A stretch of 50,046 bases of DNA from a virus (IMGVR_UViG_3300018079_000006), one strand, 5' to 3'; numbered from the stretch's first letter, positions 17,297 through 46,000 are shown. Notes: generated by a model from the sequence alone, not told the origin. Translations and numbers: made by a program.

Positions 17297-20200
17297 TTGT
17301 CAACACCTCTAGAGCGGATGCTACCGGTACCTGCCGGTCTGCCCACTCCCCAAGGAATGCCCCTACCGGCGCCGGACCCGAACACGTTCGGACTCGGCCC
17401 GTTAGACGCACAGTCTTCTCTGTCAGCGTTTCTCCCGCAACAGCTTCAGATTCAGACACCAGGAATAGTTGCTGCGGGGGATGACTGGTTAACTAGAATG
17501 ACCACTGCTCTTGGCGGATCGGGCAACGCCGACCCCGCCGAGACTCTTCTCGGGGCTAATCAGCAAACGGATCGCGCGCTCGCAAGAATCGCCCAGGTAA
17601 ATCCAGAGCTTGCAGAGCAGTTGTCTGTTCAACGCGGGGAAGAGCCCGATAGTCCGGGTTTCTTTGGTCGTATCTTGCAGACGGTTGCGTCTTCGCCGCT
17701 GGGGAAGGCGCTGGAAATCATCACCAGGCCGGGAAGAATCATTCCCGAGATCCTGACTGATGGAGACGAGAGCATCTGGAAGAACGTGGGTGATGCCCTT
17801 AGCGGGCATTCCGACGCCACGATGGGCGACTGGCTCGAACAAATGAATATCATGCAGGGCGATGACCTCCTGTCCAAAATCGGGCGGGGGGTTACGTCAT
17901 TTGGCTTGGATGTTGCCGTAGACCCGCTGACGTATATGACTGCCGGTCTGGGATCAGTCGGCCGGATTGGAGCTACGAGGTTCGGCTCGATGACCGCTGC
18001 CAAGGCTGTGATGTATGGGGAAGGCTTGTCCACTCTGGACAATATTGCATCTACTTTAGGCAAGAAAGCCCTTAACCTTGCCGACGATGCTCCCTGGGAT
18101 CAAGTAAGGGCCAAGGCATTTGAACACTGGTGGAAGACGATTACAGACCCGCGAATGGGCCGGTCGGGGAAGTGGGGTGCTTTAGCAGACGATTTGTCCG
18201 TCGTTCACCAAGACTTTATCGGAGGGCCGCTAGGCATGGCCTTGCACGGGGCTGATAAAGCCGTTGCTCTTCACGCTTTGAAAGTTGCGGACGAGGCGCA
18301 CAAGGTCATCGGTAAATTTGGGCTTAACCGGCTCGGGCCAAAGATGGCCGAGCAATTCGGTATCCCGATAGACGAGATGACTAAGATTCTTCAAGCTCAA
18401 AAGATCGTAGGAAAGTTCGGGACCCGGGCGGAATACATGCAAGGACGTTATGCAGCCTCACTTCTTGGGGGGGTTCGATTCAGCCTGCCCGGTATCAGGA
18501 TTATTACTCCCGCTATATGGGGCACGGCCAAGATGGATATGAGCATCGCCAGGCGCTTCATGAGCGGCCTGAGCGGGCAATATAGAATCATGAGAGCTGT
18601 GGAACGTAAGACGCTTGACCCCTTTCTTGCCCGCCAAGCTCTCGAAGCCGCTACGACAGGTGGGTGGAACGGGCTGAAGCAGGCAGTTCCGCAAGTGGCA
18701 CAGCACTTTGGTGGACCGGGAGGTAGGCTGGGAACTGCGTTTGCTAGTGCCTCGTGGCAGATTGGTGGGATCACCCGTAACTTAGGCTCGTTTGCTCTCG
18801 TGCGCGGGGGCGGGCTCGGTACCGCACTGTCTGCTGACGCGCGGAAGACGGTTCGGTCTATCAAAGCAACCCTTCAAAGGGAAGCGCTCGAACTTGCAAA
18901 CGACGTGGACTTAGACGATCCCAAGCCCTTGGAAGACCTTGCTAATTCCGGCTTGAAGCTAGACGCTGTTGGTGACGTATCCAAACGCGGTACTGGCCGC
19001 ATGTCTGTGCCGGAGACTCAGAGGACGCTTCACCAACTCGACCGGCTAGTCAGGGAAAAGTATCCAGATGATCCGACGATCGTGATTCGCGCCTTGGAGT
19101 CGTTCCCAGATTATCGAGCGCAACAAATGGGCGCGGAACGTTGGTACAGCGAACGCACCGGGATCATCCAGAGGAACAAATTGCCCGACGATGTGATAGA
19201 GCAGATGTTGAAGACCAATGAGATTAGACTCTCGCACGCGAAGCAAGTCGAGCTTCTGATGAAGGAGTCGCCAGAGATCGGCTTAGCGGCTCGGATTTAC
19301 CGCCTTGCGGCTAAACAGACCGTAAAGATCCATAACGAGTTCGGAGGCCACACGGCCAACAGCACTATTCGCGCCGGGGCGGAGCCGGTGATTCACCCTG
19401 CCAACAGGCAGGTCGTGGAGACCGGGCACGTTTTACAGCACGGGAAGACTTATGTGCAGCGGGCCACCCGCCGGGAGGGCGTGGGTCCTGGTTTCGAGCT
19501 GGAAGATGTAGTAGACACTCCGTTCGGGCGCGGGTACGACCTGGAAGAGATTGATGAATTTGCCCCGCCGGTCCAGCCGGAAGCTCCTGGTACTAAGGGA
19601 GCCCCAGAGGGACCAGAGGGGCCAAGAGGTGGACCGGAACGGCCTTCTCCTGAGTCCCCGGAGCTTCCCCCGATCGAAATAGACATTGAGGGCAACAGCG
19701 TAAGGATCGACTTCGAAGGTTACGATAACGCCGCGAGCGGCAGGGCCGGACTGGACGCTGAGATCGACGAATCGGGCAATATCGTGATCCAGGGGGTCGG
19801 TCTCCCCGAAGAACTGCGGGGTCGCGGCCTCGGCAAGAAGATGTATCACAGGTTAGCCGACGAGGCTGAAAAGCGCGGCGGCGTCTTGATGTCTGATGTA
19901 ACTCTATCCGGGGACGCCCAAGAGCTTTGGCGCTCTTTGGCTAAGCGGAGTCCCAATCTCGTCGAGCCCCCCGACTTCGACAAGACGTTTAACTGGGTCA
20001 TGGACGCCTCCAAGCCCGCCGCCAAAGATCAGGGCGCCAAGGCGGACGCCTTCCTAAAGAATATAGAAGATGAGACCCAGAAGATGCTCGATGGCATCGA
20101 GTTAGACGACGTTCGAGAGCTTGACGATATCACTGACGCGGCAACCCAAGGCGAGGAAGCGTTTGCTGCGATCCAGAAGCAGTTAGATCTCGTAGCTAAA

Positions 20201-23200
20201 AAAGATCCAAGATACAACATGCCGGATAGAATGACTGGCGCCCAACTTCGAGAAGCATACGACCCCAAGGTTAAGTACGATGGGATCGAATGGCGCAAGA
20301 GCCACGGCAGCAAGGAAGAGTTCGCCAAGAAGCTGACTGAAGAGGGCCAGAAGCGCCCAATCCGCTTGGCGTACGACCCCGAGGACGGCCAGTACTTCAT
20401 CTTCGATGGGCACCATCGAGTTGAAGCTCTTGATCCCAGTGTCGAGTACGACGTGGAGTGGATTCCCGAACCTGCTTGGGTTGACGATGCCCAGGGATTC
20501 ATCAACCAGGTTGATGCAGAACTGACACCACTCCCCCGAGTTTCGAAGGCGCTCGGCGTTGGCGACGAGATCAAAAAGATGCATGTCGGCGACTTTGTTG
20601 AGCGTCCTGACATCGAGCCATCCGCCAACATCCGTACCCTGGTGGCGGGCTTCGGTGTGCCGGAGGAGCATCTCGACCTCATCGACAACTTTGCCCAGTC
20701 TGAGGCGGTGGACCCGAAGTGGGGGCAGATCCTCGGAAATAAGCAGATCGGCGAGTTGGACGAGGCGACGGACATCGCGTATTGGCAAGAGAAGCTGGGC
20801 TCAATCGACGCCTGGCACCGCTCGCGGTTCGAGGGCGATCCGGACTTCGACGAGTTCATGAAGCGCTCCCCGGAAATGGATCCCGGGCAGAAGGAGGACC
20901 TCGCGACCGAGCTGTTCGGCGACCCGCTTGACGGTGGCTGGAACAAGGTTTTGCCATCAGACTACCTGGAGATCATGGGTCCTGGAGCATTGGATGCCGA
21001 GATGGCTGCGATGGATGAGTTCATCGGCCGCTCGCTCGGGAAGATCCCGGAGAGCGATCCGCGCTTTAGGGACATAGTAGGAAAGGTCTTTACTCAGGAA
21101 GAATCCCAATACAACTCCGAGGGGATAGACAAGCTGATCAAAGACTTGCGGGAAGACCCACAGGCACGCGAGATCATCAATAAGGGTTCCAATGCTTACC
21201 CACGTAAGCAAGCTGTTGCCGCCTTGAAAAATCCCGTTGTGATCAATGAAGATGCCGCGGCTATGATCAAACGTGGCAAGCGCCCGGTCGATACGACTAC
21301 GGCAGGCGGGATGGATATTGCAGAGCAGGCTGACGAGTACGTCGCCAAGACAATGGAAATGTTCAACGAGAAGTGGGATCCGCAGATTCGCGCGATCCTC
21401 GATAATCCCAAGTTCGACGAAATGGATGAGCAAGTCCAGGAAATGCTAAAAGACCTAGGACTCGCCCCTGAAGGCATGACTCGGGAGATGGCGCGAATTG
21501 CACTGGAGTCGCAAGACGAGATTGCCGCCCGTCTGAAGACTCAGTTCTTAGAAGAAGCGGGCCACGATGGCGTTATTCATGTCAAGGACGGCAAGCAGCG
21601 CGTGGTAGTCTTTGAGAAGGGGCTACAAACGGGCGACAGAGCCCCGATCTGGGAGCTGACGAATGACGCCCCTATTTACGGCCCCGAGCAGGGCTACTTC
21701 CACCGCAGGATGACCTCAGAAGTTCACGAACTATTAGAGGGTAAGCCGGGTACGATTGAGCGCCGAGCCCCCCGCGACTGGGATGCTCATTTTGAGCGCC
21801 AGACAAAGGACATGAACTTTGGGGAGGCTGACAATCATATTCGCAAGATGCTGCGTGAGATGGATCTAGAAGTCCCTGATGATATGCGGATGTTGGATGT
21901 GGACGTGCCCGCTAACCTAGCCGCCTACGTTGACGGCATGGCTAACGATGTGGGCAACATCTACCTCGGTAGGCAGACTAGAAGGTTGCAACAGATGGGC
22001 TTGTCCCGCTCTCCGTTTACTTCCAGATTCCTCGGCCCGCGGTATGAGGCGGCTCCCTCCGCTGCGTATATGAACAGCGGCAAATGGCTTTCTCAGCAGT
22101 CCGAGAAATTCTGGCAGCTAGCTCAGAAGATGGCCAGGCACCAGACCAAGGTTGCCAAGGTTGCCCAAAAGGATATGCGTCGAATTGAGACCACGCTCGC
22201 AGGTCTGAACGAGCGAATTCAGAGTGCGATCGACCGCGAAGTTAATACAGTGCAGTGGCTTCAAGAGCATAGGGGCTTGCCGGAGGATATCGCCTCGGCC
22301 CGAAAGGCTGCCGCCACGCCAGAAAACCTTCGCCCGGGGTTGGTCAAGCAACTTCAAGGACGCGAAGCTGAATTGGATCGGCTAAGACAAAAAGCCGATT
22401 GGCAAACTAATGCAATGAAGGAGGCGGCGGAGGAGTGGAATAGAATCCAGTTCTCCGCGCAGGCCAGGGTTGCTGATCCCAAGGTCGCTTTGCGAATTGG
22501 AGATCCCGAACACGTCGGTATGGGCAAGGTCATGGTCCCGGGACTTGAGGATGTCTACATGCCCGCGACTATGGCGGACGAATTCAACTATGCTGCCAGG
22601 GGCTTCAAGAGTTTGAATGAATTCCAGAAAGTCTGGCGCCGCTACCTTTCTTGGTGGAAGGAATGGGCGACGTGGGCATGGCCCGGCTTCCACATCCGTA
22701 ACATGATGGGCGGCTGGTTCAATAACTGGCTTGGTGGAGTTCAAATCGAAGACTATGTAGAGATCGGCAGGGCTATGCGTGCCCGCCGGGAGGTGGAGAC
22801 TGGTGCTGCAAAACCAAAATGGTCAAGTACCAAGCTCCCCAGAGAGTTTATCAACAAGCACGGTCTGGGGGATTACTACTTTGGGCTCGATCCGACTTAC
22901 GCCGACCTCGCCGTCTTGCTTACCAACAACGGGATCAATGCCGGTAACAGCCAGACGTTCGGCGCGGCCAGAATCGGTTCTGAGCTACTAGACAAGGAGA
23001 TGGCAAAGCCTGCTGACTCTCCCTGGACGATCGTCGATACCGCGTTCCGCAAGAATGTTAAGGCCGGTAAGCCTGGTCGAATCATCGCCAAGAAACTACG
23101 CGGAACCGGCGAGCTTACTGAGAATATGCTTCGCGGGGCGGCCTTCCTTCAGGGGCTCAAGCAGACCGACGGCGACATGATGGGCGCCCACACGTTCACA

Positions 23201-24037
23201 ATGATGCGCCACGGTGATTATGGGGACCTGTCTGACTGGGAATACGGTGCGATCCGCGATGTCGTTCCCTTCTATAAGTGGATGCGAACTAACACGCCCC
23301 TCCAGATCCACACTCTGTTCGAGAATCCCGGCAAGTTGATGGGTGTCCTGCACGCTAAGGATGCCTTCTACACGGCGACCGGGATCGACCAGGAGGATGT
23401 GAGGAGCAAATTGCCGGAGTGGGCACAGGAAGGCTTTTCGATCCCGACACTGGGTAGTACTGAAGACGCGATCAACCTTGTCGCTGCCGACCTGCCGATG
23501 AATGACTTGTACCAAGGCGCGGGAGAATTGTTCTCAAGCATCCTGCCCCTCGCCCGGCCTTTCCTTGAGAGCTACGTGACTGAGAAGAGCTTCTTCACCG
23601 GGAAGCCGATTGAGGGCGCGCCGGTCAAGGTTGCCTGGATTGATAACATTCCGTTTGTCGGTAAATTGCTGTCCGGAATCGGGATCGGACAGACAGGAGA
23701 GGACGGCGGGTATTACATCGACGACAAACTTCAGAACACGTTGGGCGTGATTCCGATTGTCGGACGATTCCGAGACTGGCTATATGAAGACCCGAAGCGG
23801 ACCAAGCTTCGAGGCTCGGCCTTGATATCGGCTGCATCTGGTGTCTCTTTTAGGACTTACGGTGAGGCAGAGTTCATGTCCGAAGAGCTGAACTTCTATT
23901 ACGGAACGGTGTTGCCGACGATGGACTACCTCAAGCAGCTGGGATACCCGCTGCCAACGACAGAAGACCTCAACGCAATGTATGGGGCAACTAACAATGT
24001 ACTCGCAGCGGCCGGTATCCCGGCGGGAGGTGCGTAA
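17297..24037 (+). CDS. Giant internal virion/ejection protein with GNAT-like and ParB-like segments
   Basis: 2,246 aa with TTG start after GGGAGAAG. Residues 829-862 read IVIQGVGLPEELRGRGLGKKMYHRLADEAEKRGG; residues 1020-1045 read RPIRLAYDPEDGQYFIFDGHHRVEAL. It occupies the gp16 position. Confidence 0.7.
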   Translation: MSTPLERMLPVPAGLPTPQGMPLPAPDPNTFGLGPLDAQSSLSAFLPQQLQIQTPGIVAAGDDWLTRMTTALGGSGNADPAETLLGANQQTDRALARIAQVNPELAEQLSVQRGEEPDSPGFFGRILQTVASSPLGKALEIITRPGRIIPEILTDGDESIWKNVGDALSGHSDATMGDWLEQMNIMQGDDLLSKIGRGVTSFGLDVAVDPLTYMTAGLGSVGRIGATRFGSMTAAKAVMYGEGLSTLDNIASTLGKKALNLADDAPWDQVRAKAFEHWWKTITDPRMGRSGKWGALADDLSVVHQDFIGGPLGMALHGADKAVALHALKVADEAHKVIGKFGLNRLGPKMAEQFGIPIDEMTKILQAQKIVGKFGTRAEYMQGRYAASLLGGVRFSLPGIRIITPAIWGTAKMDMSIARRFMSGLSGQYRIMRAVERKTLDPFLARQALEAATTGGWNGLKQAVPQVAQHFGGPGGRLGTAFASASWQIGGITRNLGSFALVRGGGLGTALSADARKTVRSIKATLQREALELANDVDLDDPKPLEDLANSGLKLDAVGDVSKRGTGRMSVPETQRTLHQLDRLVREKYPDDPTIVIRALESFPDYRAQQMGAERWYSERTGIIQRNKLPDDVIEQMLKTNEIRLSHAKQVELLMKESPEIGLAARIYRLAAKQTVKIHNEFGGHTANSTIRAGAEPVIHPANRQVVETGHVLQHGKTYVQRATRREGVGPGFELEDVVDTPFGRGYDLEEIDEFAPPVQPEAPGTKGAPEGPEGPRGGPERPSPESPELPPIEIDIEGNSVRIDFEGYDNAASGRAGLDAEIDESGNIVIQGVGLPEELRGRGLGKKMYHRLADEAEKRGGVLMSDVTLSGDAQELWRSLAKRSPNLVEPPDFDKTFNWVMDASKPAAKDQGAKADAFLKNIEDETQKMLDGIELDDVRELDDITDAATQGEEAFAAIQKQLDLVAKKDPRYNMPDRMTGAQLREAYDPKVKYDGIEWRKSHGSKEEFAKKLTEEGQKRPIRLAYDPEDGQYFIFDGHHRVEALDPSVEYDVEWIPEPAWVDDAQGFINQVDAELTPLPRVSKALGVGDEIKKMHVGDFVERPDIEPSANIRTLVAGFGVPEEHLDLIDNFAQSEAVDPKWGQILGNKQIGELDEATDIAYWQEKLGSIDAWHRSRFEGDPDFDEFMKRSPEMDPGQKEDLATELFGDPLDGGWNKVLPSDYLEIMGPGALDAEMAAMDEFIGRSLGKIPESDPRFRDIVGKVFTQEESQYNSEGIDKLIKDLREDPQAREIINKGSNAYPRKQAVAALKNPVVINEDAAAMIKRGKRPVDTTTAGGMDIAEQADEYVAKTMEMFNEKWDPQIRAILDNPKFDEMDEQVQEMLKDLGLAPEGMTREMARIALESQDEIAARLKTQFLEEAGHDGVIHVKDGKQRVVVFEKGLQTGDRAPIWELTNDAPIYGPEQGYFHRRMTSEVHELLEGKPGTIERRAPRDWDAHFERQTKDMNFGEADNHIRKMLREMDLEVPDDMRMLDVDVPANLAAYVDGMANDVGNIYLGRQTRRLQQMGLSRSPFTSRFLGPRYEAAPSAAYMNSGKWLSQQSEKFWQLAQKMARHQTKVAKVAQKDMRRIETTLAGLNERIQSAIDREVNTVQWLQEHRGLPEDIASARKAAATPENLRPGLVKQLQGREAELDRLRQKADWQTNAMKEAAEEWNRIQFSAQARVADPKVALRIGDPEHVGMGKVMVPGLEDVYMPATMADEFNYAARGFKSLNEFQKVWRRYLSWWKEWATWAWPGFHIRNMMGGWFNNWLGGVQIEDYVEIGRAMRARREVETGAAKPKWSSTKLPREFINKHGLGDYYFGLDPTYADLAVLLTNNGINAGNSQTFGAARIGSELLDKEMAKPADSPWTIVDTAFRKNVKAGKPGRIIAKKLRGTGELTENMLRGAAFLQGLKQTDGDMMGAHTFTMMRHGDYGDLSDWEYGAIRDVVPFYKWMRTNTPLQIHTLFENPGKLMGVLHAKDAFYTATGIDQEDVRSKLPEWAQEGFSIPTLGSTEDAINLVAADLPMNDLYQGAGELFSSILPLARPFLESYVTEKSFFTGKPIEGAPVKVAWIDNIPFVGKLLSGIGIGQTGEDGGYYIDDKLQNTLGVIPIVGRFRDWLYEDPKRTKLRGSALISAASGVSFRTYGEAEFMSEELNFYYGTVLPTMDYLKQLGYPLPTTEDLNAMYGATNNVLAAAGIPAGGA

Positions 24038-27584: not shown

Positions 27585-27826
27585 AGGTATTGTCCTTCCC
27601 CTGGTTTGTACTCGCCCATCTGCTTCTCCTCTACGCCCAGCGTAGCTAGGGCCTGGACCCTACTCTCAAACGGGACGAAGGGCACGGGCGCGTGGACGCA
27701 GGTAACGCCCGCCTTCTTGTTGATCATCTGTGCACAGTGAATCGCCAGGTCAAGGCCGACGACCGGCCCAAAAGCCTGGTGCATCTGTGTGCAGACGATG
27801 ACATACAGTTCTGGGTTATCGGTCAT
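27581..27826 (-). CDS. Hypothetical protein
   Basis: ATG 27826 in ATGA overlap with the polymerase stop, with GGAGAGAGG upstream. Confidence 0.55.
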   Translation of the reverse strand: MTDNPELYVIVCTQMHQAFGPVVGLDLAIHCAQMINKKAGVTCVHAPVPFVPFESRVQALATLGVEEKQMGEYKPGEGQYL

Positions 27827-29712
27827 TTTGCCTCTCTCCATGATTTAGCAATAATAGGGTCGAATACGATCGGCACGTTCAGTGCGAAGCCATGTCCAAA
27901 TTCGGCCAAGTATTTGAACGTCTTCAAGTGCGTCCACTGCACGTCATCGCGGTCGGCTTCGAACATGATCTCGTCATGAACTTGCAGGATTAGGTTCCAC
28001 TTCGGGAATTCTTCGTGGGCTAAAATCATTGTCTTCTGTGTGATATTGGCGGCACTTCCTTGGATCTTACTATTGACGCACTGCCGCTCGGCCTTCCATC
28101 CGTTTTCCCCTTTAAAGTTCAGGTGCCTGCGATGCCCGGCAATTGTCTCGACGTAGCCCAGTTCTCTACCACGCGCTACTTCTTCGTCCTTCCAGTTCCA
28201 GAAGACTTCGTACATCTCGGTGATGGCCTTATACGAGCGCTCCACCTCCCGAATGGAGAAATAGAATCCCTCCTCCGCGAGGTTGTCTTTGATCTTCGGA
28301 GGTCTGGCCCCGTAGCCCATGGCGAGGAAGCAGGTTCGTACCAGTTGTCGCTCCGGCGTGCCCTTGGAATAGTACTTCCCCAGAACTTCCATCGTTGTTT
28401 CTTCATAGATGTCCTTTCCTTCTTTGAAGACCTTTCTCATCATCGGGTCACCGGAGAAATGGGCCATCAATCTGGGCTCGATCTGGCTAAAGTCTCCGTT
28501 AACGAATACATTGTTGTCTTTTGGCCGGAACAAGCTTCGGATTTCCTTTCCAAGGCTGCCCCTTGATGGGACATTTTGGAGGTTTACCGGGTCGGACGAA
28601 GACAGCCTACCGGTTGCTGTTCCAGTCTGGTTGAAATGTGTGTGTAGTCTTCCATCCTTCTGGTGCTTCACCCATACCGCGAGGAACTGTAATGCCTTGT
28701 CGTACTCGCGGTATTTGATTAAATCCCCAATCCACGGATCTTGCCTACTGTGGTGAATTTTGAGCGTCTTAGAAGAGACGCTCGGTATGCACTTACCTGC
28801 CGGATGATCACATTTCTTCGCCGCGCATTTCGGAGCCTTGACTCTTGGTTTGAACCCAAAGCCCTTTAGTTCAAATTCACCATGGACTAACTCCCTTCCG
28901 ACCTTCTGGATGTCGAACCTCGTGTCAATTACGTCCGGCCAAACCCCTTCCTTTAGGTTTTCCATGTCGTACTTGTCTAGCCGGATCTTGGCCGGAAGCT
29001 TGTATTCCTTCGAGAACAACTGGTTGGCGATTTGGTCTCGACTGTTCAAATTAAACTGCTCGGGAAGTTTTGCGCCGTACCGCAAGTCTTTTTCCAACCC
29101 ACTGGCTAGGATAGAGTAGTCCAGTCGTAACTTATCGGTCATATTCATGCTGATCGGCAGGCCGTTTAGTTCCATGTCGAGCAAGACCTTGGAAAATGGC
29201 TCGTGCATATCCTTCCAGTAAGCCAAGGAACCGGCTGCTTCGAGCCTGCGATACATCTCAAAGTACAAGTCTTCGGTCATAGATAGGTCACGCCTATTGT
29301 AACGGCGCAGCTGATCCATCGGGGCCTGTCCGATAGGCACCAACTTACCATCATCACAACGGAAGTAGACTATTCCCTTCTGCCGGACAATCCTCTTGTC
29401 TGGGTCTATGTTCAAGTAGTTCTTGGAGCACCAATCCAGTGTCAACGGCGTAGTCTCGTCATATACGTAGCACATGACCTGGACATCCACGATAGGTCCG
29501 CCGATTTCGACACCGTGCTCGATCAACCAATGGTGGTCTGCCTTAGTAAATACAATCTTGCCGATCGACGGGTCTATCAACTTGTCGAAGGCGCCCGGCG
29601 GAATAGCATGGTACGGGTAAGAACTTCCACCAATCCCGAGTACTAGTAGCGGCTCGTCGTCTAGATTAGCATTCCACTCCAAGTCTAGAGTCACTAGTCC
29701 CTTAAGCGACAT
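27823..29712 (-). CDS. DNA polymerase, family A
   Basis: Motif A DFSQIEPRLMAHFSGD, motif B RQLVRTCFLAMGYG, motif C QVHDEIMFE, and an N-terminal TLDLEWN exonuclease-like motif. Confidence 0.9.
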   Translation of the reverse strand: MSLKGLVTLDLEWNANLDDEPLLVLGIGGSSYPYHAIPPGAFDKLIDPSIGKIVFTKADHHWLIEHGVEIGGPIVDVQVMCYVYDETTPLTLDWCSKNYLNIDPDKRIVRQKGIVYFRCDDGKLVPIGQAPMDQLRRYNRRDLSMTEDLYFEMYRRLEAAGSLAYWKDMHEPFSKVLLDMELNGLPISMNMTDKLRLDYSILASGLEKDLRYGAKLPEQFNLNSRDQIANQLFSKEYKLPAKIRLDKYDMENLKEGVWPDVIDTRFDIQKVGRELVHGEFELKGFGFKPRVKAPKCAAKKCDHPAGKCIPSVSSKTLKIHHSRQDPWIGDLIKYREYDKALQFLAVWVKHQKDGRLHTHFNQTGTATGRLSSSDPVNLQNVPSRGSLGKEIRSLFRPKDNNVFVNGDFSQIEPRLMAHFSGDPMMRKVFKEGKDIYEETTMEVLGKYYSKGTPERQLVRTCFLAMGYGARPPKIKDNLAEEGFYFSIREVERSYKAITEMYEVFWNWKDEEVARGRELGYVETIAGHRRHLNFKGENGWKAERQCVNSKIQGSAANITQKTMILAHEEFPKWNLILQVHDEIMFEADRDDVQWTHLKTFKYLAEFGHGFALNVPIVFDPIIAKSWREAK

Positions 29713-32035: not shown

Positions 32036-32091
32036 TTACTACCTCCTGCCTCCCGATTTGGTGGGCTAAACCCACTATCACCATTATACGG

Positions 32092-32163
32092 AGTGAGGCC
32101 CAGGAATCGAACCTGATCCTTCCGGGACACAACCGGACGGGCTACCACCCACCCCCGCCTCAC
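32092..32163 (-). tRNA. tRNA-His (anticodon GTG), atypical
   Basis: Minus-strand cloverleaf: acceptor GTGAGGC/GCCTCAC, D stem GGGT/GCCC, anticodon arm TCCGG-TTGTGTC-CCGGA, T arm TCAGG-TTCGATT-CCTGG. It has G8 and U37 and no encoded G-1 or CCA. Confidence 0.7.
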
Positions 32164-33729: not shown

Positions 33730-33816
33730 TACCTCAAGATAAGCTCCGCGGGAGACGAAGCGCTTCGCCCCCAGCCGTCGCCGGGCACCATAATCAGAGT
33801 GCCCCGCGGAGCGGAG

Positions 33817-33883
33817 TGGACGGGGTGGGAATCGAACCCACGTCCGGGTACACAAGCGTACACCGTCGAAACCTATCCCGCCC
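33817..33883 (-). ncRNA. Aberrant tRNA-like element (canonical acceptor and T arm, non-canonical D/anticodon region)
   Basis: Acceptor GGGCGGG/CCCGTCC (one G-U), T arm GTGGG-TTCGATT-CCCAC, discriminator A. Only 35 nt lie between them. The best central hairpin, GG(T)GTAC-GCTTGT-GTACCC, has a 6-nt loop. Confidence 0.45.
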
Positions 33884-36861: not shown

Positions 36862-37115
36862 GGTTTCTCCCTTTGAATCTCGAACGCCAATTTTGTAATG
36901 GCCGTGCTGAGCCGACTCGGAAGGTTCCCGTAAAGGTCTTCCAACAGGCCGATGATCTGGTTGGCGCACGCGACGGCGGTGGGCGCGTGGTTGTCTCGGT
37001 CGGGCGGCACGCCATACCTGTGCGCCCGCAACCCACACCTCTCGCAGATTGGGTTGAGCGCATCTAGTTTCGCCTGAAGCTTTTGAGCTAGTGCTCGCCA
37101 GTCTTCTTGTTTCAT
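36858..37115 (-). CDS. 85-aa hypothetical protein
   Basis: ATG 37115 in ATGA overlap with the primase-helicase stop; C-terminus EIQREKP. Confidence 0.55.
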   Translation of the reverse strand: MKQEDWRALAQKLQAKLDALNPICERCGLRAHRYGVPPDRDNHAPTAVACANQIIGLLEDLYGNLPSRLSTAITKLAFEIQREKP

Positions 37116-38689
37116 AGCTTCTCCTCTTTCAGTTTGGCCGCCTCGCGGGCTTCCCGCAAGCGGTCGAGCAGGGACGGTGGTGCATCTGGCTTTGGTTCCG
37201 GCGGGGGCGGGGAGCCCCCTTCCTCGTGCCACATGCTCCCCAAGTCCACGTCGTGATCATCAATTACCCTGAAGTCGATGTTGTTGTTGTCGGTCTTCAC
37301 GGTGATCGGCTTCGGTATCGAAGCGTCCCCCCGCACCTTCTTAACCCTAATCCTGACCTTGTGGTTGTCGTCCTCATCGGGCCGCTCGAACATCAAGTTC
37401 TGGTCCATCTTGTCGCCCTTGGAAGACGCGCCCCTGGCCCAATCGGGTTGCACCTTCCCCCGCTCGGTCAGGATCGCCTGCCCCGTGTTGTCGAGAATCA
37501 GCAAGGTAGCCCCAGTTTCCTCGATCAGCGGGAGGAAGAACTCCTGGTCCAGCCGGGCAACAGCGTCGTTGTCGTTGGAATTGCCTCTCTGAGCTGCCGA
37601 CCAGGAGTCCACCACGATCAGGCTATAACCCTTGAGCAGGTCGCAGGCCGCCGCCAGGTCGTTGCTGCTCTCAAAAGAGAGCCTGCGGAATAGCTTGAAC
37701 CTGTCCCTGGGCGGGTTCAACTTCTTGAGCCGCTTGGCGACCTCCTTCGGCTGCATCTCTAGGCTGAAGTACGCCGCCTTGTGCCCTTCTTTCGCCAGCT
37801 GCGAGGCCACCCACATCGCCCACAAAGACTTCAGCGACCCGGCAGGCCCGTATGCCATCACCCGGCTGTTCGCCGGGATGTAGTTGTCCAACAGCCAGTC
37901 CACCTCGGGAGCCTCGTACCTCTCCCAGTCCATCTCCTCAAACTCGCGGCCGTCGGTAATGACGTGGCGCTCAAGATCCTTCAAGCCGTAACCCTGGTTG
38001 AAGAGATCGGTCACATCCTTGCCGTGTGGGTTCTTCCACACGCCTAGCCCCTTGCAAGAGCCGCGAAGGGCATTCTTGACTCGCATGGCACCTTCAATGC
38101 CGGGCTGGTCGTTGTCGGCGATGATGTCTACGTGCTTGTCCCTTAAGGACGGCAGGTATTCGTCCTTCCAATTTCCGGCGCCGCCGAGTAGGGTTGTTCC
38201 GACAACCCCCTCGCCTCTAAGCGTCTCGACATCCTTCTCGCCTTCGACTACCCAGACATGCTCCGCCCCCACTACCTCGGGCAGGTTGTAAAGCACCCTT
38301 CTGGTTTCGAATAGGCGGTTCTTCCACATGTTGTCTGCGGGGTCCCACCGCTCCTGGCGGAAGCTCTTGGGCCACGTCCTCGTGACCCGGATCAGAGGGT
38401 CCCCCGCCTCGTCTGTGTAGACGTATTGTGCTACGTCGAATCCACCGTCTTTGTTGTTGAACAAATCCTTCATATCCAAGCCGAGGGCCGCGACGACCAA
38501 GGGTGTATCACACCCCGCGAAGCAGTGAATCAATGCTCTGCCGTCGTCGCCCCTAGCTACGCTCAGCGACGCGCGCCCGTCCTCGTGGGACGGGCAACGC
38601 GCACTGAACTTGGAACCATTCTGTCTCTCAATGATGCCAGCACCGTCAGCGGCCTGGAGTACGCGATCGTAACCGTTACCTGCTGTCAC
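37112..38689 (-). CDS. Bifunctional primase-helicase
   Basis: Zn finger CPSHEDGRASLSV...HCFAGC; TOPRIM VWVVEGEKD and DIIADNDQPG; P-loop GPAGSLKS; Walker B LIVVDSW; GTG start after GGAGGAC. Confidence 0.85.
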   Translation of the reverse strand: MTAGNGYDRVLQAADGAGIIERQNGSKFSARCPSHEDGRASLSVARGDDGRALIHCFAGCDTPLVVAALGLDMKDLFNNKDGGFDVAQYVYTDEAGDPLIRVTRTWPKSFRQERWDPADNMWKNRLFETRRVLYNLPEVVGAEHVWVVEGEKDVETLRGEGVVGTTLLGGAGNWKDEYLPSLRDKHVDIIADNDQPGIEGAMRVKNALRGSCKGLGVWKNPHGKDVTDLFNQGYGLKDLERHVITDGREFEEMDWERYEAPEVDWLLDNYIPANSRVMAYGPAGSLKSLWAMWVASQLAKEGHKAAYFSLEMQPKEVAKRLKKLNPPRDRFKLFRRLSFESSNDLAAACDLLKGYSLIVVDSWSAAQRGNSNDNDAVARLDQEFFLPLIEETGATLLILDNTGQAILTERGKVQPDWARGASSKGDKMDQNLMFERPDEDDNHKVRIRVKKVRGDASIPKPITVKTDNNNIDFRVIDDHDVDLGSMWHEEGGSPPPPEPKPDAPPSLLDRLREAREAAKLKEEKL

Positions 38690-40021: not shown

Positions 40022-40195
40022 TTATTTCGACCACATTTCCCGCCAAACTACAACACTACCATCGGGAAACAGAACCGTTCTCTTGCGATAAACGAACAAT
40101 TGTGTCTCACGCTTTACTTCACCTGGACGATGCGGTTCCATTGGGTGTAAAATGACCGCGAACCGAAGCGAGTAATCCTTCTTGTCTCTGTTCAT
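40022..40195 (-). CDS. Unlisted 57-aa hypothetical protein
   Basis: ATGA overlap with the upstream stop; MNRDKKDYSLRFAVILHPMEPHRPGEVKRETQLFVYRKRTVLFPDGSVVVWREMWSK. Confidence 0.5.
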   Translation of the reverse strand: MNRDKKDYSLRFAVILHPMEPHRPGEVKRETQLFVYRKRTVLFPDGSVVVWREMWSK

Positions 40196-40386
40196 GACTC
40201 ATCCTTTCGAATGATCTCCTCGTCGATGCTCCCCGAGGTGAACCCGTTCTCGGCCCATCGCTCAAAGTTCCGGTACCTGTTGTGCTCATCCTGACGGCCT
40301 CGCCGGATCATCGCCCGTTGCTCTTTCGTGGCCTTGCGAGAGATGCTGTCAGGATGTGTCAAGGAACCGAACATAGGGTTGCTCAT
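40192..40386 (-). CDS. Hypothetical protein
   Basis: ATG 40386 after AGGGAGGAAAAC; ATGA overlap. Confidence 0.55.
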   Translation of the reverse strand: MSNPMFGSLTHPDSISRKATKEQRAMIRRGRQDEHNRYRNFERWAENGFTSGSIDEEIIRKDES

Positions 40387-40514
40387 GTTTTCCTCCCTTC
40401 TCGGGGCGGGCAAGCACACGGCTCTGGAAGCCGACGACGTGTGCCACATTGGTCACACGTCACATACTCAAACGGGTTGTCTTGCCTTTCGGGTGTTGCT
40501 CTCGGCTCGGTCAT
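40383..40514 (-). CDS. Unlisted 43-aa Cys-rich mini-protein
   Basis: TGATG junction; MTEPRATPERQDNPFEYVTCDQCGTRRRLPEPCACPPREGRKT. Confidence 0.45.
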   Translation of the reverse strand: MTEPRATPERQDNPFEYVTCDQCGTRRRLPEPCACPPREGRKT

Positions 40515-40792
40515 CACATGTTCCTACGATCGGTAATCTCAGTCACCGCGTCATCGATGATCTCGATGTTCACTTCGAGTTGCTGGTGCGAGAGCTTTGG
40601 ATGGGCCGTCAGCGTGGTCTCTACCCATTTCGGGCTCCTGTCGGCTGCTTCCGCTACTTCGACCTGAGAGATCCTTCGGTCTTCCATTAGCAACAGCGTG
40701 TTGATGATCTTCCAGAACAGGTCGATCCGCCCGCTCTCGGCGAGCTTGTCGAGGTACTGCTTTCGGTTCCCCTCTTCACGCACTGTCTTCAT
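40514..40792 (-). CDS. Putative HTH DNA-binding protein
   Basis: RISQVEVAEAADRSPKWVE has a helix-turn-helix-like pattern; AAGGAA SD. Confidence 0.4.
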   Translation of the reverse strand: MKTVREEGNRKQYLDKLAESGRIDLFWKIINTLLLMEDRRISQVEVAEAADRSPKWVETTLTAHPKLSHQQLEVNIEIIDDAVTEITDRRNM

Positions 40793-41675: not shown

Positions 41676-41851
41676 CGTCCGGCCTTTCTGTCCGTTCGCG
41701 AGACTTTACACCAGCGCACTTTACGGCTGGCCATCAGCGCGAAAGCAACCTTGTCCATCTGTTCACGGCCCTTACGATCGTCGCGCTCAACACGCTCGAC
41801 CTTGTGCTGGCCGTTCGTCCGCGAGACCGTCAACTCAAGGAACGTCGTCAT
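41672..41851 (-). CDS. Hypothetical basic protein
   Basis: ATG 41851 in an ATGA overlap. Confidence 0.5.
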   Translation of the reverse strand: MTTFLELTVSRTNGQHKVERVERDDRKGREQMDKVAFALMASRKVRWCKVSRTDRKAGR

Positions 41852-42108
41852 ACCATCACCCACCCGTTAGAGCGCTCAAGAGCGCGCCTACGAAGAAACG
41901 GTGACGGCTGCCGTATGTGCCTTCCCCTACTGGCCTTCTTCTTCGTGAAGTGCCACCACCCGCAAATCGGACACACGTAAGCGTGGCCGTACCACAACCG
42001 TCCGGTCTTTGAACTTCTCGAACCATAGCGCCACCACGATACGAGGAGCGCACCAAGCGGCGTAAAATACCGCCGCTTACAGTGTCGGCCCTTATAGTTC
42101 CCGCTCAT
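41848..42108 (-). CDS. Small Cys/Trp protein (CPICGWWH motif)
   Basis: ATG 42108 in ATGA overlap with the peptidase stop; YGHAYVCPICGWWHFT. Confidence 0.55.
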   Translation of the reverse strand: MSGNYKGRHCKRRYFTPLGALLVSWWRYGSRSSKTGRLWYGHAYVCPICGWWHFTKKKASRGRHIRQPSPFLRRRALERSNGWVMV

Positions 42109-42869
42109 AAGTCCTTCTCGATAACTGCCTGGAGCAGCGGTCCTAGGTCTCTCATGTCGAGGCCATGAGCGTCGGCATAGCGCTGGGCCGTTTGGCGTGG
42201 CATCGGGCTGTCTAGGATCTCTTGCTCGAAATCGCTCCATTGTTTTCGATCTCGCGCTCCGTCTTGGATGCGCCTCATTTCTTCTCTTTCGCGCTCTTCG
42301 TCTTCGTCGCGCCTCTCACCAGTTTGTTCGTATTCATCGAAGCAATTAGGGGCATCATCGCCCGGCTCGGGTTCTAGTGGAATGTACCACTTGAGCTTTC
42401 GCGCCTCATCTGGAGAGAACAACGCATCTATCGTCATGTCTGTATCCACGCGCCATGTTCGATCGTCGATCTTGAGAGCGCGCCGGTAGGAATTCAGCGC
42501 ATCCAGCATCAACATTCCGTTTTCGTAGGTCAACGCGAGCGGCGCGAGCGGCGAGAGGTGCTCATTACCGCGAATCCACGCTTCGATCTCTGCCTGCCAT
42601 TTATCATAGTTGTCCATCGCCTCGAAGCCCTCGAATTTACCGAGCCCTTCCTTCAGGTCACTGATGATAAAGGCATGTCCGAACTCGTGGCGCATGCACA
42701 TGTCTGCCGTGGACCGACCTCGAATGGCCGCGGGTCCCCAACAAACGATGTGGATTCGATCCATCTCCGACCGAACACTTGTGACGCCCTCGACTTGCCA
42801 TTTCCGAGCGAATGACGACTCAGAATTGGGCTTGTTTGTGTCGTAAAAGTGGTCAACAGGCATCGTCAT
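42105..42869 (-). CDS. Putative zinc metallopeptidase (HExxH)
   Basis: MCMRHEFGHAFI; acidic C-terminal tail; ATGA overlap at the start. Confidence 0.55.
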   Translation of the reverse strand: MTMPVDHFYDTNKPNSESSFARKWQVEGVTSVRSEMDRIHIVCWGPAAIRGRSTADMCMRHEFGHAFIISDLKEGLGKFEGFEAMDNYDKWQAEIEAWIRGNEHLSPLAPLALTYENGMLMLDALNSYRRALKIDDRTWRVDTDMTIDALFSPDEARKLKWYIPLEPEPGDDAPNCFDEYEQTGERRDEDEEREREEMRRIQDGARDRKQWSDFEQEILDSPMPRQTAQRYADAHGLDMRDLGPLLQAVIEKDL

Positions 42870-43711
42870 AGTATCTCATCCTCTCTGAGTTCGAGAGAAA
42901 CACGGCGGCGAATGACGTCTAGGATCCAAGCCTTTGCTTCGTATTCACGAGCAGGAACGATCTCATCGAAATCGTGTTCATGGCGAGATAGTTGCGTAGG
43001 ACGACCATATCCGCCCATTCTCCTGAAGCCCATTGTTTCGCGGACGTTTTTCGGCTCGTGCTCGTACGTAGCGAAAGCGAATCGTCTTAGGGCCGCCGGA
43101 TGAACCGTCCAGAAAGCGAGCCGATCCATGTCAATCGGTCTTCCCGCCTGTTGGATCAGAACTTGGTGCGAGACTCCTATGATGTTTCGATTTCGCATCG
43201 TGTAATTGTCTACCGTGAATGTGACCCAGACTTCGCTAGGGATTCCCGCCGTTCGCAAGGCTTCGACCACCGCGAGCACAGATGCGCCTGTTGCTTCGAT
43301 GTCACCCGTGCTCGTCGCCGCCGCGATGGCTCGTTCGATCCCGATCTTGATCACGGGTGAAGGCCGTTGTCCGCGGACGACCTCGACCATATCGTCCGGT
43401 TCGCCGGTCATGAATCGACCGATATCCACGCTCGACCCTTCTGGACCCCAGCGTGGCCGTGGGCGCGTGGCCGTTCGGATCCTTGCCAGCTTCCCTAGTT
43501 TGCGCTGGAGCTTGAGCGTGCCCTTGTGGTAGCCTTCGTAGGACATCTGAATCGCCTCTTCGAATGTCGCCCCATACCAGTCGCGTGGTCCAAATGAGTC
43601 TAGTTCCACCCGAGAAGAAACGTTTTCGATCCCTTCCGGAGGTCTCTTTGTGGCTAATGCAATTGCTTGCTCTAGGTCGAACTTCCTGATGCGTCTAGTC
43701 TTTTCAAGCAT
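42866..43711 (-). CDS. Partner protein of the AAA+ ATPase (possibly degenerate VWA/CobT-like)
   Basis: 281 aa overlapping the ATPase stop. The beta-alpha pattern VIKIGIERAIAAATSTGDIEATGASVLAVVEALRTAG lacks a clean DxSxS MIDAS motif. Confidence 0.35.
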   Translation of the reverse strand: MLEKTRRIRKFDLEQAIALATKRPPEGIENVSSRVELDSFGPRDWYGATFEEAIQMSYEGYHKGTLKLQRKLGKLARIRTATRPRPRWGPEGSSVDIGRFMTGEPDDMVEVVRGQRPSPVIKIGIERAIAAATSTGDIEATGASVLAVVEALRTAGIPSEVWVTFTVDNYTMRNRNIIGVSHQVLIQQAGRPIDMDRLAFWTVHPAALRRFAFATYEHEPKNVRETMGFRRMGGYGRPTQLSRHEHDFDEIVPAREYEAKAWILDVIRRRVSLELREDEIL

Positions 43712-44933
43712 GAGACTTCTCCAACAGAGAAGAGATCTCGTCATCCTTGAGGCCGACCAATTTCGTGGTCAGCGCCTCACGGAGCGAGAATCCCTTATGG
43801 CAGAGAATTGTTGCGTGAATCGTCGTTCGTGGAGACACAACTGAGCCGCGGAAACGTAATTCGATTTCGTTCCGAAGCTTGCTCACGACCCTGACGACAG
43901 TTTCGGATTTGGGAGCCAGACAAGCCTGGCGCGCCCGATCGTCCATCTTAGCCGAGAACGCGGTGCGACACTTCTTCCCGAGAGACCCGAAGGCATCACT
44001 GTCTCCGGCCGCTAGGTGGGCTAGCGCGAGTTCGAGCTTGTCTTCGATCGGAACGCGAAGCGTGACGAACCGGTCTCGGGTCGCCAGGTCCACACCGTTC
44101 CGTCCGATGAATCCCGCCTCCGGCCCAAGACCGGCCGTGTTCGCCGTCGCAATCACTCGGAAGTCATCGTGGCGTTGAACGACCGTTCCCGACCCGAACA
44201 CACAGTGCCCATTGCTCATCGCGCTGTTCAGCGCCGCGAGCAGGTTCGGGTTACCGTTGTCTATCTCGTCCAGGAGCAAGATTCCACCGTTCTCGTACGC
44301 ATCCCAGAGTGGTGTCCGGTGGTCTATCCCGTTCGCATCGCTATAGCCGAACAGGTCTGTCCGAGTCATCATCTCGTGGCACGAGACCGGGTGGAAAGCA
44401 AGGCCTAGCGCCTCGCTAGTTTGGAACGCCATCGTGCTCTTGCTCGTCCCCGGGGGACCCTGAAGCCATACGGGGAGATTACCCTGAACGGCGAGTAGGA
44501 CATCCGGTAGAACGCTGTGCCACACACCGGACGGCGGCTCGGGGAACAGAGCCCTGATTCGAGCAATCTCTTCAGAATCGAGAACGATTTCTGGCTCAGG
44601 CTCTGGTGCAGGTGCAGGTGCAGGCACTGATGTTTCGTCCTGGCCTTGCTCGCCCTCGAACTTGTCTTGAATCTCATCCAACTTCGACTTAGGTGCTCCG
44701 CCCGATTTGTTCGGATTCTTCCGAGCACATGACGGGCACGGGCGGCCTTCGAGCCATTTTACGGCAGAAGGCTTCTTGATGCTGTATGCAAACTCATGAC
44801 CACATTTGTTCGTGATCATTGTCTTTCCGTCTGGTCGGACCCAAGGATCTCCGAATTTGGGAACGACGACGTAGGTCTTATCGCCCTTCGGCATGGTCTT
44901 ATAGCCTTTCGGCGTTTCCTCTCCGAAAGCCAT
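43704..44933 (-). CDS. AAA+ ATPase, MoxR/CobS-like (AAA_5-type) with N-terminal zinc-ribbon-like segment
   Basis: Walker A GPPGTSKST, Walker B GILLLDEID, sensor RVIATAN; N-terminal CGHEF...CPSC. Confidence 0.75.
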   Translation of the reverse strand: MAFGEETPKGYKTMPKGDKTYVVVPKFGDPWVRPDGKTMITNKCGHEFAYSIKKPSAVKWLEGRPCPSCARKNPNKSGGAPKSKLDEIQDKFEGEQGQDETSVPAPAPAPEPEPEIVLDSEEIARIRALFPEPPSGVWHSVLPDVLLAVQGNLPVWLQGPPGTSKSTMAFQTSEALGLAFHPVSCHEMMTRTDLFGYSDANGIDHRTPLWDAYENGGILLLDEIDNGNPNLLAALNSAMSNGHCVFGSGTVVQRHDDFRVIATANTAGLGPEAGFIGRNGVDLATRDRFVTLRVPIEDKLELALAHLAAGDSDAFGSLGKKCRTAFSAKMDDRARQACLAPKSETVVRVVSKLRNEIELRFRGSVVSPRTTIHATILCHKGFSLREALTTKLVGLKDDEISSLLEKSHA

Positions 44934-45334
44934 TACTGTCCTTCCTTCTCGGCGCGAGTGTAGCGAGGCGCAAAGTTCTCGAAGAACAAATGCACTTCGA
45001 CACCCTCACGAGTTGTCGCAACAATCCAGTTCCGGCGCAACCGAGAGTCCCCGTCGATGATGCGGACGGTCTCGGCGACATAATACACTTTCTTCGCCAG
45101 ATTGTCCGTCCCGGTCTCGTGAGTCTCGCAGTAGCCAGCGATGCACTTCCCGCAGCCTCTACGCGCCCAGGCTAGCTCATCGTCCGTGTACGTTCTTTCT
45201 GTGTACGTCTTGAGGTCATCTGTCCCGGTCTCGTGCTTCTCGCAGTACTCATCAAACAAGCAGTCGCTGCATCCCCAGCGAGCCCAGGCCAGCTCGTCAT
45301 CCGTGTAGCCTGTTTGGCCCTCCGTGTTCTGCAT
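44933..45334 (-). CDS. First early-arm gene: protein with an internal duplicated Cys/His module
   Basis: ATG 45334 after GGAAAGGAAGAG. Two copies of YTDDELAWAR.GC..C...YCE.HETGTD.L are present. Third-position GC upstream is near 50 percent, arguing against the longer ORF-track version. Confidence 0.55.
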   Translation of the reverse strand: MQNTEGQTGYTDDELAWARWGCSDCLFDEYCEKHETGTDDLKTYTERTYTDDELAWARRGCGKCIAGYCETHETGTDNLAKKVYYVAETVRIIDGDSRLRRNWIVATTREGVEVHLFFENFAPRYTRAEKEGQ

Positions 45335-45449
45335 GTCCTGACTCTTCCTTTCCCGTTCTCCGTGCTCCGCACCATCTGCCTTAGACAGCGCGGCAAGACA
45401 ACTTGACCCAAGAGCGCTCCTTCCCGTTCGTGGTCCGTTCACGAGGATT

Positions 45450-45458
45450 AGTATACCA
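45450..45458 (-). promoter_or_regulatory. Candidate extended -10 (TGGTATACT) for the leftward early arm
   Basis: Read on the minus strand about 115 nt upstream of ATG 45334; no convincing -35 element. Confidence 0.3.
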
Positions 45459-45729
45459 CGTTCACGCTTCTCGCCGAGAATACCTGGAGCGCATAAGACC
45501 TGGACGGGCACTAAAAATCGTAGCGCAAACAGCTTGCAGGACATCTCGTCCTCAGCAGGCATTTCCCCAACACGACGATACGACGCAACAGGTCCGGGCG
45601 GCCACCGTCCTTTGGCCCGTCTCGCCCGGCAAAGGTCTAGTCTTCGGAGGATCCTTGCCCGCCGATGCAATGGAAACCCGCGCGCCGCGCCTAGTCCGAC
45701 CTGCGCATATTCGGGTTGCGCCAAAGACA

Positions 45730-45738
45730 TGTTATACT
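45730..45738 (+). promoter_or_regulatory. Candidate extended -10 (TGTTATACT) for the rightward arm
   Basis: Same TGnTATACT form as the leftward candidate, about 260 nt upstream of 46001. Confidence 0.3.
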
Positions 45739-46000
45739 TTGGTTAAGGAGCGCGAGCGGGAGGGAGAAGCACCAAACCGCCGTTCGAGAGGCGAGAGGCG
45801 AGAGCGCGAAAGGACGGGGCGAGAGCGCGAAGCGGGACCGACTCCCCCTCCCCCGGAAGGGCTTCGGGGAGGGGAAAGTAACCTACAGCGCACGTGAAGC
45901 ACCGAATCCAATGCGCGGTAATACGAACGGGCGATTTATGCCCCGCCGCAACTGCTCGTGTGATCAGGTAGTTTCAGGAAGTTAACAGGGAGGAAACAAG

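Follow-up and report, generated by a model that had tools for sequence, protein, structure and literature searches.

A 50,046-nucleotide (nt) stretch of viral DNA, IMGVR_UViG_3300018079_000006 (hereafter the window), carries an ATPase gene and a partner gene that are kept side by side in very distant tailed phages and are followed, in this lineage, by a third gene for a zincin-like protein. The ATPase is the product of g1 (43704-44933, minus strand; 409 amino acids, aa), in which a MoxR-class AAA+ domain (AAA_5) is preceded by a Cys/His module at the N-terminus and by a Pro/Ala/Glu linker. Its partner is the product of g2 (42866-43711, minus strand; 281 aa counted from the ATG at 43711), a DUF7192 protein, and the third gene, g3 (42105-42869, minus strand; 254 aa), represents an uncatalogued family with a zincin-like N-terminal domain. 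The conserved core is the two-gene pair, which occurs across very distant tailed phages and in a few bacterial or prophage loci; g3 is a lineage-specific third component, always directly downstream of the pair in this lineage. Together, the three products probably constitute a remodelling motor of the NorQ/NorD kind, built from g1 and g2 and serving or using the zincin-like g3, and not a cobalt chelatase. An earlier note, made from the sequence alone, had added a fourth gene, g4 (41848-42108, minus strand; 86 aa counted from the ATG at 42108; basic, Trp-rich and carrying CPICGWWH), and had proposed a four-part ATPase-adaptor-protease module. Open reading frame (ORF) calling in the window recovers all four genes at these positions.

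The pair was traced through 60 IMG/VR loci encoding relatives, whose ORFs were scanned with a hidden Markov model of DUF7192 and with the AAA region of g1. In 59 of these 60 loci, a g1-like ATPase and a DUF7192 gene are neighbours on the same strand, with the ATPase upstream in 58; in the sole exception (L052, in the numbering of loci used here) the DUF7192 gene sits at the contig end. The same adjacency is seen in all eight loci of a species-representative genome collection and in one bacterial contig of 174 kb. Cultured phages with the pair include Mycobacterium phage LeBron (gp128-gp127), the Staphylococcus Kayvirus phiIPLA-RODI (gp033-gp032), Listeria phage LP-013, Acinetobacter phage Herod and Rhizobium phage RHph_X2_24, and the DUF7192 partner is annotated 'hypothetical protein' in every cultured-phage record examined. 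The position of the pair and its neighbours differ from phage to phage. Since the two genes are adjacent in unrelated phages and genome loci, the conserved unit is two genes, and the pair is far older and wider than this phage. The idea that g2 is a dedicated ATPase partner, already put forward in the earlier note, is borne out by this adjacency. No functional study of the pair came up in literature searches on phage CobS, CobT and MoxR proteins or on the ATPase of Kayvirus. Two DUF7192 paralogues accompany one ATPase in several phages and prophage-like loci (L008, with LeBron gp127 and gp120; L013, L050, L057-L059, L069, L077, L081 and L082), which suggests alternative or heteromeric adaptors for a single motor.

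The assignment of g1 draws on a match to Pfam AAA_5 (PF07728) that scores 72.1 bits (cutoff 22; E 6.2e-20) and covers profile positions 2-139 of 139. This core occupies residues 155-289 (44067-44471, minus strand) and contains the Walker A motif GPPGTSKST, the Walker B motif LLLDEID and the sensor-1 region VIATAN; in an alignment of phage and bacterial homologues that includes distant ones, G159, G162, K165, D222, E223 and N265 are invariant. Sequence searches of the PDB return AAA modules of midasin as the best match (2e-17), followed by CobS (3e-8), CbbQ and NorQ, and PHROG 249, labelled 'porphyrin biosynthesis', is matched at E 6e-40. With an AAA_5 match far above chance and these relatives among solved structures, g1 belongs to the MoxR-class AAA+ ATPases, in agreement with its first description as a MoxR/CobS-type protein. 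The CobS equivalog of NCBIfam (TIGR01650) scores 25.2 bits against a cutoff of 558.55, which supports the original opinion that cobalt chelation is unlikely. The model for the ATPases of MoxR-vWA-beta-propeller conflict systems (bpMoxR, PF20030) scores 13.3 bits, below its cutoff of 27, and a Pfam scan of the neighbouring genes gave no beta-propeller match; these ternary systems were reportedly described by Kaur et al. in 2020. PADLOC returned only weak, sub-threshold RtcR-type AAA matches for g1 (E 0.0036) and none for g2-g4.

Ahead of the AAA+ core, residues 44-69 of g1 (44727-44804, minus strand) form a putative zinc-binding module, CGHxxxYxI...EWLxxRPCPxC. A CxH...CxxC element of this type is kept in seven of the eight ATPases that precede a g3 homologue, and the eighth (L083) has a different stretch, C...H...CxxC. 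The N-terminus gives only a weak match to the Pfam DUF4379 treble-clef (E 0.17), and the module may bind metal. A specific tie between this module and g3 was considered and partly rejected: 13 ATPases from loci lacking g3 have Cys-rich N-termini of other kinds (CxxC...CxxC), and the element is therefore a variable accessory module.

The partner protein g2, which the earlier note could not match to any family, belongs to Pfam DUF7192 (PF23822), scoring 125.9 bits where the cutoff is 27 (E 2.4e-36), and to PHROG 1909. All 24 homologues of g2 that were found are PF23822 members. A profile search of 1.84 billion cluster representatives puts the family at 8,141 clusters at 50% identity (E <= 1e-3), almost all of them single-domain proteins of 260-310 aa, and a literature search for DUF7192 or PF23822 found no mention of either. 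An AlphaFold model of g2 built on 22 homologues has a predicted local distance difference test (pLDDT) score of 80. Its top three PDB matches in Foldseek are the VWA domains of NorD bound to NorQ, with weak scores (E 3.6e-3 to 5.9e-2, prob 0.85-0.93, template modelling (TM) score 0.27-0.28), and the next are the VWA domains of Ku and of complement factor B. In the model, strand 121-126, helix 135-154, the hairpin at 159-187 and helices 195-216 follow one another as in the first half of a VWA fold. [quoted passage not shown] A MIDAS remnant as a feature of the whole DUF7192 family was also examined and rejected, since 33 of 249 members have the N/D form and only 2 the canonical D. Tentatively, g2 is read here as a derived, MIDAS-less VWA-like adaptor and a candidate member of the VWA group.

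Conservation within DUF7192 is concentrated elsewhere. The most conserved stretch of the family corresponds to g2 residues 88-116 (43364-43450, minus strand), with the consensus G..VD.GR...GEPECM, in which G92, V95, D96, R99, G103, P105 and M108 are conserved at 76-100% across the 249 family members. In the model this segment is a low-confidence loop (pLDDT 51-57). By analogy with NorD, it is a candidate for the finger that a VWA-type partner inserts into an ATPase ring. Further conserved sites are R141-G142, G156, E160, the pattern HP..LRR..F...E (204-217) and YG (235-236).

The third protein, g3, finds no match in Pfam, PHROG, NCBIfam or PADLOC. A profile search gathered 20 homologues, all metagenomic; no relatives were found in GenBank phages (tblastn) or IMG/VR, and sequence and profile searches of the PDB gave nothing meaningful. 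The motif that had led to its description as an HExxH peptidase is invariant across the family in the form HExGH. It reads HEFGH at g3 residues 61-65 (42675-42689, minus strand), lies on a long helix (49-76), and its H61, E62, G64 and H65 are kept in at least 90% of 20-21 homologues, the lone exception being an N-terminally truncated sequence. D71 is also conserved. A second family motif, WQxEVEAWxRG, contains an invariant E94 and an E96 kept in at least 90% of members; these glutamates lie 29-31 residues past H65, on a predicted helix (90-103), and either is a candidate third zinc ligand. Other family motifs are LDxLNSYRR and YxPLEPxP....C. They are followed by a D/E-rich linker of highly variable length and by a C-terminal three-helix domain of helix-turn-helix (HTH)-like appearance (W....GLD....PPL..A).

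The structural model of g3 (pLDDT 87) shows a three-stranded sheet, the long HExGH helix and a later helix with the two glutamates, so that the N-terminal layout in the model is that of a small gluzincin. Its best fold match in the PDB is the M48-like peptidase 3c37 (E 0.92), and in BFVD it comes closest to two phage proteins that are uncharacterised (prob 0.97-0.99, E 0.014-0.031). Zincin-type entries recur weakly, among them an AR9 'zincin protease' and IrrE-like, M48 and SprT-like proteins, and those labelled as zincins in BFVD have prob <= 0.16. One of the 20 family members matches Peptidase_M48 at E 0.17, and a few give weak HTH matches for the tail. Assignment of g3 to ImmA/IrrE (M78), M48 or SprT was tried, and all three were rejected with no significant score.

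The firmest evidence on g3 is its position beside the pair, seen in every locus that can reveal it. In all eight informative loci, meaning those with enough upstream sequence to show the genes before g3 (the window, L001, L002, L006, L083, L084, L085 and L086), the order is AAA_5-DUF7192-g3, with at most one small ORF inserted between adjacent members, and the synteny of g3 with g1 and g2 thus holds in relatives. This order persists where g3 identity is as low as 25-33%, the most divergent homologue shows it too, and the surrounding genes differ. Two truncated contigs also have a DUF7192 fragment directly upstream of g3, and no g3 homologue was found away from an ATPase-DUF7192 pair.

A model for how the three proteins may act is offered by better-studied relatives. 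MoxR ATPases act with VWA partners, and cryo-electron microscopy of NorQ-NorD shows a finger of the VWA domain in the pore of the ATPase ring, with another contact at the post-sensor-1 loop; upon ATP hydrolysis the partner is rotated, a linker is stretched and the client is remodelled (PMC13036017). The same authors propose this finger-in-pore mode as general, including for CbbQ-CbbO and midasin (PMC13036017). On this pattern, g1 would form a hexameric ring, on which g2 would dock as VWA-type partners do on MoxR ATPases, with its conserved, flexible 88-116 loop inserted into the pore as the finger. ATP hydrolysis by g1 would then turn or pull g2, and the bound protein would be remodelled. Since the MIDAS site has been lost, g2 probably recognises its client through a different surface. 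In this lineage g3 would be the client or effector, a small zincin-type, metalloprotease-like protein that the motor may activate or position, or that may itself cut a protein opened by the motor. More tentatively, since the module stands at the head of an operon that carries the primase-helicase and the DNA polymerase, the target might be a protein of the host or the phage that is acted on before replication or in its course. A more specific version holds that this would be a phage-specific machine, with a degenerate, MIDAS-less VWA adaptor, that loads or activates g3 early in infection so that a protein of the host, such as an immunity or stress-response factor, is unfolded and cut, and that the same core serves other clients in Kayvirus, cluster L mycobacteriophages and other phages; this extension is speculative and, on present evidence, unlikely.

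Several results weigh against a NorQ/NorD-like motor with a zincin-like client. In the Foldseek comparison with the PDB, no match of the g2 model reaches E <= 1e-3, the best having E 3.6e-3, prob 0.90 and a TM score of 0.28. There is no Pfam VWA match for g2, and sequence and profile searches of the PDB gave nothing meaningful for it. The hhalign comparison of the DUF7192 alignment with the protein in the CobT position of cyanophage S-RIM14 returned a probability of 0.6%, a test of little power, as it used a single target that itself lacks a Pfam match. Of the 249 family members, 2 have Dx[ST]x[ST] and 33 have [DN]x[ST]x[ST]. For g3, no peptidase family or structure is matched significantly, which leaves it a putative protease. 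Finally, g3 is absent from most DUF7192-bearing phages and thus cannot be the general client of the pair.

One alternative is a chaperone for virion assembly or maturation, or for replication, with g3 as a processing protease for a phage protein. A precedent for a viral MoxR-VWA chaperone exists in Acidianus two-tailed virus, whose MoxR-like p618 and VWA protein p892 are reported to have been proposed to act in tail development (Scheele et al. 2011, cited in PMC7911831). Conservation of the pair in large lytic phages of unrelated hosts would suit a phage-intrinsic role over a host-specific one, and the module lies on the same strand as the replication genes. However, it is found among small accessory ORFs outside the structural arm, with a position and neighbours that vary among phages. 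Most phages lack the module altogether, and it is therefore no core factor of assembly. Such a role is considered unlikely.

Another possibility, and a rather improbable one, is that g3 is an independent conserved neighbour, perhaps a protease of the ImmA/IrrE-like type that cleaves a regulator and has an HTH domain of its own. The weak HTH matches of the C-terminal domain and the IrrE-like entries among the weak fold matches are in line with this, and the g3-bearing phages are all interrelated (g2 identity 41-52%), so shared descent contributes to the synteny signal and could explain it. Against independence, the trio order is kept in eight of eight loci though all else around it differs and g3 identity falls to 25-33%, and no homologue was found apart from the pair.

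A single cassette of four parts, in which the zinc mini-protein encoded by g4 joins the ATPase, adaptor and protease, is very unlikely. The ORFs are indeed consecutive and joined by overlaps, and g4 has the Cys/His motif CPICGWWH. When the sequence was read, the g1/g2 junction proved to be ATGCTTGA and both the g2/g3 and g3/g4 junctions ATGA, and the translations contain GPPGTSKST, LLLDEID, VIATAN, CGH...CPSC, the PAPAPAPEPEPE linker, MCMRHEFGHAFI and YVCPICGWWH, so the earlier account of the ORFs, motifs and stop/start overlaps was accurate throughout. The overlaps, however, run on past g1 and g4 on both sides and do not mark off a cassette, contrary to the use first made of them: the ORF upstream of g1 overlaps the g1 start by 1 nt (TAATG), the g4 stop overlaps the ATG of the next gene at 41848-41851 (ATGA; GTATGACG), and, by ORF coordinates, three further junctions downstream of g4 also overlap. 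Translational coupling or tight packing is thus a property of the entire leftward operon.

In addition, g4 itself has no homologue. A search of 5.8 billion proteins matched only g4, and none of the related loci, including the eight syntenic relatives, has a counterpart. Its in-frame codon score of -0.09 falls below the minimum (-0.013) of 76 confident-gene chunks of the same length (261 nt; mean 0.217, standard deviation 0.08). The g4 frame is nonetheless the best of six at 41848-42108, and its GC content at the first codon position is below that at the second, the opposite of every confident gene. Judged by these features, g4 appears to be a lineage-private ORFan outside the conserved unit; its coding status is doubtful and it may be untranslated. 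The genes directly after g3 in relatives (L005, L006 and L085) are instead homologues of the window ORFs 40514-40792 (HTH-like) and 40192-40449, which lie about 1.3 kb beyond g3 with five small ORFs, g4 among them, in between. As these later genes match 40192-40792, the segment 40793-42104 is a lineage-variable insertion zone. With no homologue anywhere, no syntenic counterpart and weak coding statistics for its fourth member, the proposed four-part unit does not hold. Other relatives have a DUF6011 protein with a C-terminal CxxC...C directly after g3 (L002, 5317-5832; L086, 5803-6303), and in L001 such a protein is found further downstream (11639-12166).

Finally, it is extremely improbable that g1-g2 are a viral CobS/CobT that hijacks host CobN to raise the cobalamin supply, since the PHROG 249 label 'porphyrin biosynthesis', the presence of CobS among the PDB matches of g1 and the annotation of homologues as CobS in cyanophages and Listeria phages are outweighed by a g1 score far under the CobS equivalog cutoff (25 vs 558 bits), by a g2 without MIDAS, of 281 aa against about 700 and with an hhalign probability of 0.6% to cyanophage CobT, by the occurrence of the same pair in Staphylococcus Kayvirus phages and by the lack of any place for a protease-like third gene. 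Staphylococcus, the host of Kayvirus, is not known to make cobalamin aerobically. The published cobST-hijack hypothesis for phage cobST clusters concerns a different partner family (PMC8651126).

The operon that holds the module also includes replication genes. Further down the same strand lie a primase-helicase gene (37112-38689) and a family A DNA polymerase gene (27823-29712), whose product is at most 27% identical to any cultured-phage counterpart. A DNA similarity search of the region against known phages gave no match, promoter and terminator scans of the region produced no score above shuffled expectation, and an Rfam scan of the region found nothing relevant. The first ORF of the operon (44933-45730, minus strand) is coding-like only from the ATG at 45334 (codon score 0.22, against -0.06 upstream), and, provided that the first gene begins there, g1-g4 do occupy the second to fifth places of the operon that the earlier note gave them. 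Within the 133-aa product from that ATG, a Cys/His-rich unit, YTDDELAWARxGCxxC...YCExHETGTDxL, is duplicated in tandem; the product shows no family match. The divergent intergenic region between the two arms (45740-45910) contains the direct repeat GGCGAGAGCGCGAA twice, 21 nt apart, together with related GAGCGCGA copies; these repeats may be regulator-binding or origin-type sites.

Elsewhere in the window, the structural arm includes a single ORF of 2,246 aa (17297-24037, plus strand), presumably a tape-measure or tail-fibre type protein. Three tRNA genes are present, for Gly(tcc), Met(cat) and His(gtg), at 588-661 and 670-742 on the plus strand and 32090-32163 on the minus strand, and the tRNA-His gene lies within the replication-gene arm. 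A further segment (33814-33883, minus strand) matches the Rfam transfer-messenger RNA (tmRNA) model at 54.6 bits, against a gathering score of 47, by joining both ends of the 374-position model in about 70 nt. A clean T-arm and the 3' half of the acceptor (GGACGUGGGUUCGAUUCCCACCCCGUCCAC) can be made out in the alignment. ARAGORN called neither a tRNA nor a tmRNA at this position, which could be a tRNA-like domain or a remnant.

The trio is a new variation on the MoxR-plus-adaptor theme: g1 and g2 are new members of catalogued, functionally uncharacterised families, and g3 represents an uncatalogued one. The pair itself is widespread (about 8,100 clusters) and occurs in phages of therapeutic type, such as Staphylococcus Kayvirus, as well as in Listeria, Acinetobacter and Mycobacterium phages, where the partner is annotated as a 'hypothetical protein'. 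The link to the NorQ/NorD motor and adaptor provides AAA_5-DUF7192 genes with a testable model, and the g3 lineage names a candidate client or effector, the piece that is missing for most MoxR systems. If a role in anti-defence or host takeover is true, the mechanism would be ATP-driven, unlike the small stoichiometric inhibitors known so far, and the loading of a zincin would make this a protease system of a new, energy-dependent class that serves anti-defence or host takeover. If an assembly role is true, the pair would represent a phage chaperone class of general interest.

Among the known systems closest to g1-g2 are the pairs of cultured phages (LeBron, phiIPLA-RODI, LP-013, Herod and RHph_X2_24), in which both families recur with order and orientation unchanged. 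They differ in lacking a g3 homologue, in the N-termini of their ATPases and, in cluster L mycobacteriophages and several metagenomic loci, in having two DUF7192 paralogues. The minimal gluzincin/M48, ImmA/IrrE and SprT zincins resemble g3 in that a small sheet is followed by a long helix carrying HExxH and a Glu lies about 30 residues downstream on the following helix, whereas those families do not have its YxPLEPxP..C motif, variable D/E-rich linker and HTH-like tail.

Phage Bas54 (Vequintavirinae) requires its MoxR-annotated ATPase bas54_0063 to overcome DS-28, a predicted defence system, an anti-defence phenotype that was shown by experiment (HIDEN-SEQ preprint, 10.1101/2025.11.20.689424). 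No other functional precedent was found for an anti-defence role of a phage MoxR ATPase, and the resemblance is one of analogy, not homology. The rV5 protein gp004, which we take from gene order to be its probable counterpart, is not similar to g1 (E 0.4), has sub-threshold AAA matches only and no DUF7192 neighbour.

The phage cobST clusters of cyanophages, pelagiphages and haloarchaeal viruses likewise place a partner gene next to that of a MoxR-class ATPase carried by a phage, often under the label 'porphyrin biosynthesis'. Their partner CobT, however, is a VWA/MIDAS protein, and g1 fails the CobS equivalog model. In cyanophage S-RIM14 the partner is a 708-aa protein encoded upstream of cobS, not a DUF7192 member. 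This gene (L073, 765-2891) is annotated 'peptidase' and has no Pfam match at E <= 0.001; a cyanophage 'peptidase' upstream of cobS is the kind of gene that has been called a mis-annotated CobT (PMC8651126). Even this well-known partner is thus poorly covered by profile libraries.

Midasin (Rea1), a single polypeptide of 4,800 residues with six AAA modules, functions in eukaryotic ribosome assembly and provides the best solved-structure match to the AAA core of g1 (2e-17). In the window, the acidic linker belongs to a separate protein, g3, and the resemblance is architectural only. Midasin combines an AAA_5 ring, an acidic (D/E-rich) linker and a VWA-type, MIDAS-bearing domain, a loop of which enters the ring (PMC13036017). 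The bacterial systems NorQ-NorD, CbbQ-CbbO and RavA-ViaA share with g1-g2 an AAA_5-class motor whose partner is encoded beside it. They differ in having a respiratory or Rubisco client, for which no gene lies near g1-g2, while the genes described here are phage-borne and followed by a zincin-like third gene. Compared with a partner of the NorD type, g2 is half the size, has no MIDAS and shows no sequence-level similarity to VWA domains; its best fold match is nevertheless the VWA domain of NorD, and the finger-in-pore docking of that protein offers a mechanistic template for the pair.

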